Source: Escherichia phage Zumzum
Sequence record: PP925847.1
Length of the DNA: 44,738 nucleotides
Direction: 5' to 3' (one strand)
Shown: positions 81 to 299 of the stretch, piece after piece
Numbering within the stretch: position 1 is the first letter of the stretch
How the letters are laid out: each line of letters opens with the position of its first letter
The notes under the pieces: generated by a model
Seen by the model: only the letters and a program-made list of their open reading frames with translations
Told to the model about the DNA's origin: nothing
Database searches by the model: none
Position numbers and translations under genes: made by a program

Positions 81-299
81 ATGAAAACTTTAATTATGAT
101 TTGTGGGGTTCTTTTGTCGGGTTGTGCCAACATGCCGACTAAAGTCTGCGACGCGACATACATGAATAGTGGCGTGGAGTATTCCGTCCCTGTGTTTGGG
201 GTTGCAGACGTTAGCGGTCATAAAATGTTACGGGCGGGATACCCATTCAACTTCCAGTATGTGTCGGTCGACCACTTCAAAAGCACAACCTGCAAATAA
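81..299 (+). CDS. small lipoprotein (72 aa), candidate Cor/Llp-type superinfection-exclusion protein
   Basis: ATG at 81 in frame with ORF 18..299; signal peptide MKTLIMICGVLLSGC with lipobox L-S-G-C; sits in the tail-fibre region on the opposite strand to the tail genes. Confidence 0.6.
   Translation: MKTLIMICGVLLSGCANMPTKVCDATYMNSGVEYSVPVFGVADVSGHKMLRAGYPFNFQYVSVDHFKSTTCK

Follow-up and report, generated by a model that had tools for sequence, protein, structure and literature searches.

A Cor-family exclusion lipoprotein gene in Escherichia phage Zumzum, with FhuA as its expected target

Situated among the tail genes of Escherichia phage Zumzum, and read on the strand opposite to them, is a short gene whose 72-residue product carries a lipoprotein signal peptide. 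It lies at positions 81..299 of sequence record PP925847.1, a stretch of 44,738 nucleotides that was analysed at its full length and is referred to here as the window. We conclude that this gene is very probably the cor gene of a Dhillonvirus, and that it encodes a superinfection exclusion lipoprotein that probably acts on the receptor FhuA in a manner resembling that of Llp from phage T5. The window itself is identified by sequence comparison as a rotated genome of an Escherichia coli Dhillonvirus (an HK578/SO-1-like coliphage). A first-pass annotation, made from the letters of the window alone, had proposed a receptor-disabling lipoprotein of the Cor/Llp type at this position, and that proposal is now supported by family profiles, sequence similarity, cassette context and the co-variation of the gene with receptor use. 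The gene is not new to the databases or to the literature: GenBank already labels identical or near-identical copies as cor, NCBI maintains a curated model of the family, and the correlation between the surrounding cassette and receptor choice has been published.

The open reading frame (ORF) begins with an ATG at 81 and ends with a stop codon at 297-299, and its 72-amino-acid product reads MKTLIMICGVLLSGCANMPTKVCDATYMNSGVEYSVPVFGVADVSGHKMLRAGYPFNFQYVSVDHFKSTTCK. A longer ORF begins with a TTG at 18, but relatives annotate a different start. Among six Dhillonvirus orthologues of cor, the ratio of nonsynonymous to synonymous substitution rates (dN/dS) ranges from 0.11 to 0.23, with synonymous divergence (dS) reaching 0.8, and because of these ratios the comparison indicates that cor is a real gene under purifying selection. 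The first 1400 positions of the window (1-1400) are 99.4-99.6% identical to the genomes of SM_S24, Dru_SM5 and vB_EcoD_Over9000. In Over9000, gp27, annotated as 'putative superinfection exclusion protein', is 100% identical to the 72-residue protein; SM_S24 and Dru_SM5 label the same gene 'super-infection exclusion protein cor'. Annotation of the locus is uneven among other phages. In SM_S22 (PP627283.1, 1310-1546), two short hypothetical ORFs have been annotated on the wrong strand over an intact cor of 72 codons, KS_S9 labels cor as hypothetical, and the record of Shigella phage 1b has no feature at cor. Furthermore, the locus occurs twice in PQ843332.1 (phage P-GXEC-L2P5, 88,607 bp), a record that may represent a concatenated assembly.

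At the level of sequence, every test of family membership gave the same answer. The protein scored 60.1 bits against a cut-off of 31 with the NCBIfam equivalog model NF047972 ('phage exclusion lipoprotein Cor'), with residues 2-71 aligned on profile positions 2-76 of 78, and it matched PHROG 1119 ('Cor superinfection exclusion protein') at 1.9e-27 over residues 1-72. In alignment, it is 42% identical to the Cor protein of phi80, 50% to that of T1 and 43% to that of HK022, and 20 columns are invariant among these sequences, including the motif RAGYPF (R51-F56) and the cysteines C15, C23 and C71. A tblastn search of phage genomes returned 244 records, among them phi80 cor at 40% identity. The breadth of the family depended on the method of search: a word-indexed protein search with the single sequence reached 6 close relatives, and a profile of four sequences was needed to reach 212 family members, mostly from enterobacterial prophages and T1-like phages and many of them named Cor by NCBI. 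Pfam contains no model that matches the 72-residue protein. Collectively, these results identify it as a member of the Cor family. The first-pass annotation had named clear homology to an unrelated lipoprotein family as grounds for abandoning its proposal; the family was found to match only Cor and, remotely, Llp.

The Cor proteins of phi80, T1 and HK022 share with this one the lipobox, the two cysteines, RAGYPF and the cassette in which the gene resides, and the expected target, FhuA, is the same as for the Cor proteins of phi80, N15, HK022, mEp167 and T1. There are nonetheless differences. This Cor has 72 residues, whereas those of phi80 and HK022 have 77 and that of T1 has 75, and it lacks the three-residue 'QEP/QKP' insert that precedes Cys23 in phi80 and HK022. 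Likewise, cor lies on the strand of the tail tip gene J in phi80 and HK022, whereas here it lies opposite J. The lifestyles of the phages also diverge, as the Dhillonvirus host of this gene is virulent and phi80, N15 and HK022 are temperate.

The N-terminus of the product is that expected of an exported lipoprotein. The residues MKTLIMICGVLLSG are followed by C15-A16, and K2, the hydrophobic core and L12-S13-G14-C15 conform to the PROSITE PS51257-type rule, so that the ORF, the lipobox and the rule all agree with the 72-residue lipoprotein originally proposed. Cys15 is predicted to be lipidated and to form the N-terminus of mature Cor. Under the '+2 rule' of the Lol system, a residue other than Asp after the lipidated Cys directs a lipoprotein to the outer membrane; because the +2 residue here is Ala16, sorting of the cor product to the outer membrane is predicted. 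Taken alone, the lipobox is weak evidence, because seven other ORFs of the window (1652 start/ORF combinations) satisfy the PS51257-type rule as well, mostly spuriously. Apart from cor, a single lipobox ORF of the window is convincing, namely 17304..17534 on the - strand (MLRALTALIVVLTLSAC..., Cys17); it probably encodes the o-spanin, judging from the annotation of such a gene in the Dhillonviruses of the BASEL collection.

The mature part of the protein is more distinctive. In a family alignment of 76 sequences, M1, C15, C23, G53, P55 and C71 are invariant, and G14 (at least 90%), G31, V36, G40, A52, Y54, F56 and F66 are nearly so. An AlphaFold2 (AF2) model of the 72-residue protein has four beta strands and a mean predicted local distance difference test (pLDDT) score of 82.8, rising to 92-93 over residues 21-70. 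An intramolecular disulfide between Cys23 and Cys71 is predicted for mature Cor. The 'Cys pairs' of the first-pass annotation are accordingly to be read in the singular: the cysteines are there, as a single pair.

The closest protein of solved structure is T5 Llp. When the 76-sequence Cor profile was aligned with Llp by hhalign, the match had a probability of 90% and an E value of 1.5e-6, extended over the full length, and aligned both cysteines; C23 and C71, which occupy mature positions 9 and 57, fall on the Llp pair that forms the disulphide Cys11-Cys58 (PMC9586334). Simpler comparisons recover less of this relationship. Pairwise BLASTP of Cor with Llp covers only the N-terminal 40 residues, and in a sequence search of the PDB Llp (8a60_B) was the only or the best match, at non-significant values (phmmer E 0.28; four-sequence profile E 0.045). 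Further weak PDB matches, to a TraV lipoprotein signal peptide, to fibronectin and to centyrin, were set aside as products of signal-peptide likeness or of composition. Using the AF2 model as query, the top hit of Foldseek in the PDB was again 8a60_B (E 0.038, template modelling scores 0.50/0.57, root-mean-square deviation 2.8 over 51 columns), although no PDB match reached E <= 0.001; Tudor/SH3-like and chromodomain structures scoring close behind Llp were discarded as generic small beta-barrels. In BFVD, the best matches after a Dhillonvirus Cor were T5-like entries named 'lipoprotein' and 'receptor-blocking protein'. A fold shared with Llp has also been predicted for other Cor proteins (bioRxiv 10.64898/2026.03.26.714494; PMC13164509). 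Cor is therefore best described as a remote homologue of Llp, belonging to the same superfamily and probably acting in the same mode, and not as a member of the same family.

The likeness extends to the organization of both genes. T5 Llp and, by prediction, this Cor are small lipoproteins of the outer membrane, comparable in length and with their termini clamped by a disulfide, and both genes diverge from a tail or receptor-binding gene over a spacer of about 80 bp that holds a promoter (here a putative one). In T5, however, llp is divergent from pb5 (oad), whereas the divergent neighbour here is the lateral tail fibre gene and a gp23-like gene is the convergent one. The partner receptor-binding protein of Llp is pb5, that of Cor a gp22/gp23-like pair. 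Moreover, T5 Llp, which inactivates FhuA, lacks RAGYPF and is about 27-29% identical to this Cor. The crystallographic structure of FhuA with Llp bound places Llp at the periplasmic face of the receptor, bound to a non-native conformation of the plug, with two extracellular loops, EL7 and EL8, turned inward so that they lie over the site where pb5 binds (PMC9586334). By analogy, the likely mechanism of Cor is periplasmic binding to FhuA and allosteric closure of the outer loops, as opposed to masking of the surface. Receptor disabling thus survives from the first-pass annotation, and 'masking' proves to be a loose description, given that Llp itself is periplasmic and allosteric (PMC9586334).

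Which receptor is concerned can be judged from the two genes that adjoin cor, encoding proteins of 224 and 100 residues, and from the distribution of cor among Dhillonviruses of known receptor. The 100-residue and 224-residue proteins are 99-100% identical to their counterparts in JLBYU37 and JLBYU60 (99.6% for the 224-residue protein), two Dhillonviruses that are experimentally FhuA-dependent (PMC10373560). In the BASEL collection, PaulFeyerabend, GeorgBuechner and KarlBarth use FhuA, and TheodorHerzl and Oekolampad use LptD (PMC8594841 supplement). The FhuA users PaulFeyerabend and GeorgBuechner (Bas15 and Bas16) carry Cor at 86% and 92% identity; in the LptD users TheodorHerzl and Oekolampad (Bas14 and Bas18), no homologue of Cor, of the 100-residue protein or of the 224-residue protein was found. 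The same slot in those two phages is filled by a protein of 311-321 residues and a different lipoprotein of 73-76 residues, which in Oekolampad (bas18_0026) is treated as the superinfection exclusion lipoprotein (PMC12685063). An association of the extended cor cassette with FhuA in Drexlerviridae and in Dhillonvirus has already been published (PMC13164509), as has the idea that phages share receptor-specificity loci accompanied by their cognate exclusion genes (PMC8594841; PMC11990801). Because of the near-identity of the cassette proteins to those of FhuA-dependent phages, the presence of Cor in FhuA users and its absence from LptD users, and the published association, we strongly infer that FhuA is the terminal receptor of Zumzum and the target of its Cor.

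If this reading holds, a weak sigma-70 promoter, located in the conserved spacer of 80 bp, would drive transcription of cor alone, antisense to the late tail operon and probably early after infection, and the transcript would end at a hairpin at 298-315. The precursor would be exported, lipidated on Cys15 and cut by signal peptidase II, and a beta-rich mature domain of 57 residues would be clamped by the Cys23-Cys71 disulfide. Mature Cor would then bind the periplasmic face and the plug of FhuA and lock the receptor, as T5 Llp does, such that its extracellular loops would no longer accept phage receptor-binding proteins. Infected cells and their debris would in that case no longer adsorb the progeny of the phage or other FhuA-dependent phages, and FhuA-dependent uptake of ferrichrome would probably be lost as well.

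The signals that would govern this transcript can be discerned in the sequence with differing clarity. A candidate cor promoter was read by eye and has 8/12 consensus positions plus an extended -10 element (TG-c-AATACT, 42-50). Its bases are invariant in four aligned Dhillonviruses, those of the LptD type included, though nearly the entire stretch 1-95 is equally conserved in those four. A promoter for cor in the 80-bp spacer is plausible on these grounds. The scan did report a + strand 'promoter' at 73-100, but this site includes part of the start codon region of cor and is thus unable to drive the gene. On the - strand, a sigma-70-like site at 120..93, within the 5' end of cor (CCGACA, 16-nt spacer, CATAAT, 9/12), points toward the lateral tail fibre gene, and its -10 element is not conserved in TheodorHerzl; in T5, divergent promoters are annotated between oad and llp, one of them overlapping the llp start.

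Downstream, the hairpin AAGCCCC-TTTC-GGGGCTT shares bases with the cor stop codon and is separated by 3 nt from the stop codon of the 224-residue protein gene. Read as the + strand it folds at -14.3 kcal/mol (z -2.5), and read as the - strand at -14.5 kcal/mol (z -1.7). The sequence that follows it on the + strand, UCUUCAAUC, is T-rich, and the 3' arm itself ends in UU, whereas its continuation on the - strand, AUUUGCAGG, is T-poor. A terminator scan did not flag the hairpin at 298-315, and the records of T1 and phi80 annotate terminators at the equivalent place. The hairpin is plausible as an intrinsic terminator for cor, and the case for it as a terminator of the opposing late transcript is weak; late transcripts probably read through it to reach the tail fibre gene. 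Of the bidirectional terminator that had been proposed, the hairpin is real and plausible for cor, and its bidirectionality is weakly supported.

Several points weigh against the conclusion that Cor acts on FhuA as Llp does. With regard to expression, a consensus promoter scan at a threshold of 9/12 found none 5' of the cor ATG; the promoter of its own that had been ascribed to the gene therefore stands as a plausible site read by eye, sub-threshold in the scan and weakly supported. The literature searched yielded no experimental study of this protein or of a Cor from any Dhillonvirus. With regard to mode of action, the mechanism of Cor has been described as not yet elucidated (bioRxiv 10.64898/2026.03.26.714494), and the statistics behind the structural link to Llp are weak (Foldseek E 0.038; phmmer E 0.28). 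With regard to the target, Cor is 83% identical to its orthologue in JLBYU37 and about 85% to that in JLBYU60, though its cassette neighbours are 99-100% identical. Finally, Cor-like proteins are also present in BtuB-dependent T5-like and Tempevirinae phages (PMC13164509), so that belonging to the family is by itself insufficient to establish the target.

These points lend some substance to two alternatives within the Cor family. In the first, the protein would still be an exclusion lipoprotein, acting otherwise than Llp, whether upon other outer-membrane proteins or through a block after adsorption, at DNA entry or TonB coupling. The published uncertainty over the mechanism would accommodate such a protein, as would the low identity to Llp, the borderline significance of the fold match and the RAGYPF motif, which has no Llp counterpart in the hhalign alignment. 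We regard it as unlikely nevertheless, given that the alignment of the Cor profile with Llp spans the full length and keeps both disulfide cysteines, that Llp is the top match of solved structure, and that published predictions give Cor and Llp one fold. In the second, the target would be a receptor other than FhuA, such as BtuB or another TonB-dependent transporter. FhuA use by Zumzum is only inferred, and one Dhillonvirus, PTXU06, has been reported as BtuB-dependent (PMC10373560), which adds to the BtuB-dependent carriers of Cor-like proteins mentioned above. Set against this are the near-identity of the cassette proteins to those of two experimentally FhuA-dependent Dhillonviruses, the FhuA dependence of all BASEL Dhillonviruses with this type of Cor, and an NCBIfam equivalog model that was built on FhuA-targeting Cor and was passed at twice its cut-off; a different target is consequently very improbable. 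The last possibility, that the small lipoprotein of 81..299 is unrelated to Cor and lies beside tail genes by coincidence, whether as an o-spanin for lysis, as a moron with another function or as the product of a chance ORF, could appeal to the seven other lipobox hits and to the want of a Pfam match, and it is effectively refuted by the strong Cor-specific profile matches, the dN/dS values, the six positions invariant in 76 homologues, synteny kept in five phage lineages and the likely o-spanin elsewhere in the window.

Table 1. Features of the cor locus and its surroundings (window positions; strand given as + or -, or as a point where none is assigned).
Feature	Position	Strand	Basis or remark
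Putative sigma-70 promoter for cor	22..50	+	TTGCAA 22-27, 17-nt spacer, TG 42-43, AATACT 45-50
Shine-Dalgarno AGGAG	68..72	+	8 nt 5' of cor ATG; read from sequence
cor, 72-aa Cor-family superinfection exclusion lipoprotein precursor	81..299 (including stop codon)	+	ORF list, family profiles, dN/dS
Predicted signal peptide (residues 1-14) and lipobox L-S-G-C	81..125	+	PS51257-type rule; C15 = 123-125
Predicted mature domain, Cys23 (147-149) to Cys71 (291-293), with motif R51-A-G-Y-P-F56	147..293	+	Family alignment, model
GC-rich hairpin, 7-bp stem, 4-nt loop	298..315	.	Between convergent cor and 224-aa protein genes
224-aa protein, N15 gp23-like	319..993	-	PHROG 425, 6.7e-70
100-aa protein, N15 gp22-like	993..1295	-	PHROG 557, 1.1e-32
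J-like tail tip protein, 1139 aa	1332..4751	-	Pfam PF24801, PF13550, PF09327
Lateral tail fibre, 637 aa	42825..44738	-	Start codon is the last triplet of the window

The surroundings of cor are conserved well beyond the Dhillonviruses (Table 1). Along the - strand the order is J, the 100-residue protein, the 224-residue protein, cor (antisense, on +), the 80-bp spacer and the lateral tail fibre gene, from which cor diverges across the spacer; the layout in Over9000 is identical. As had been noted in the first pass, cor is thus opposite to its flanking tail genes, all four of which are on the - strand. The order J, gp22-like, gp23-like and cor is common to phi80, T1 and HK022, and in T1, too, cor and the gp23-like gene are convergent and separated by a hairpin, and an annotated terminator spans the junction. 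Neither the 100-residue nor the 224-residue protein has a match in Pfam or NCBIfam; the PHROGs labels for the pair are 'membrane associated' and 'outer membrane protein'. The BASEL work regards the gp22/gp23-like locus as a bona fide receptor-binding module, whereas PMC13164509 suggests an exclusion role instead. Elsewhere, tandem DNA repeats (ggtcttcgcagtattagcggcgtcgcg...) are present at about 44090..44270, where the lateral tail fibre gene encodes its N-terminal portion; they translate into repeated AESARDAANTAKTGAE-like units. Over the whole window, a tRNA scan found no tRNA genes and an Rfam scan found no families at the gathering threshold.

Comparison with the LptD-type Dhillonviruses, in which sister phages carry Rtp45-like lipoproteins, outlines the limits of what may be exchanged. 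Rtp45 and bas18_0026 of Oekolampad (PDB 9RPS) represent the type of lipoprotein that occupies the slot of cor; proteins of this type are periplasmic and alter the extracellular loops of the phage receptor (PMC12685063). Their mature domains are unrelated in sequence to this Cor, their target is LptDE and not a TonB-dependent transporter, and their partner receptor-binding protein is a single protein of 311-321 residues encoded on the lipoprotein's own strand. Despite this, Oekolampad has in common with Zumzum the 80 bp upstream and a signal peptide with 15 of 16 residues identical. In DNA alignment, the spacer and the first 16 lipoprotein codons are kept (L006 21796-21843) and similarity ends at about position 127, and a tblastn search of Oekolampad with Cor aligns only the signal-peptide residues 1-16. 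At the other end, residues 1-1099 of J are 97-98% identical to those of its counterparts in the LptD-type Dhillonviruses, and the last 40 or so, which co-vary with the cassette, have no match there. On the basis of these two comparisons only, an exchangeable receptor-specificity cassette appears to extend over about 127-1454, with one junction at around codon 1099 of J and the other inside the signal-peptide coding region, the latter because the first 16 codons are shared with Oekolampad and the mature parts are unrelated.

A further mosaic breakpoint near the hairpin at 298-315 is suggested by the same phages that point to FhuA, because in these Cor is 83-85% identical but the 224-residue and 100-residue proteins are 99-100% identical; the dS of cor relative to its orthologues in JLBYU60 and JLBYU37 is 0.55-0.66. 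PaulFeyerabend, an FhuA user, carries a second allele of the cassette, at 54% and 69% identity. It is tempting to speculate that the promoter, the ribosome-binding site and the signal peptide constitute a fixed 'socket' into which unrelated exclusion domains (Cor, Rtp45-like) are swapped together with matching receptor-binding proteins, an idea that we hold tentatively and would sooner doubt than accept. Were such a socket general, it would show, at the level of sequence, how a single exchange could retarget receptor use and exclusion together.

Beyond its correct annotation, the gene matters little in itself, and the predictions drawn from it were already deducible from published work on Cor, on Llp and on the BASEL collection. 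Its value is as a marker of a cassette of the FhuA receptor type in this phage. Specifically, FhuA is predicted to be the terminal receptor of Zumzum, loss of fhuA would be expected to confer resistance to it, and infected cells would be refractory to T1, T5, phi80 and their relatives. Such predictions may be of use in the design of phage cocktails and in the retargeting of small siphophages.

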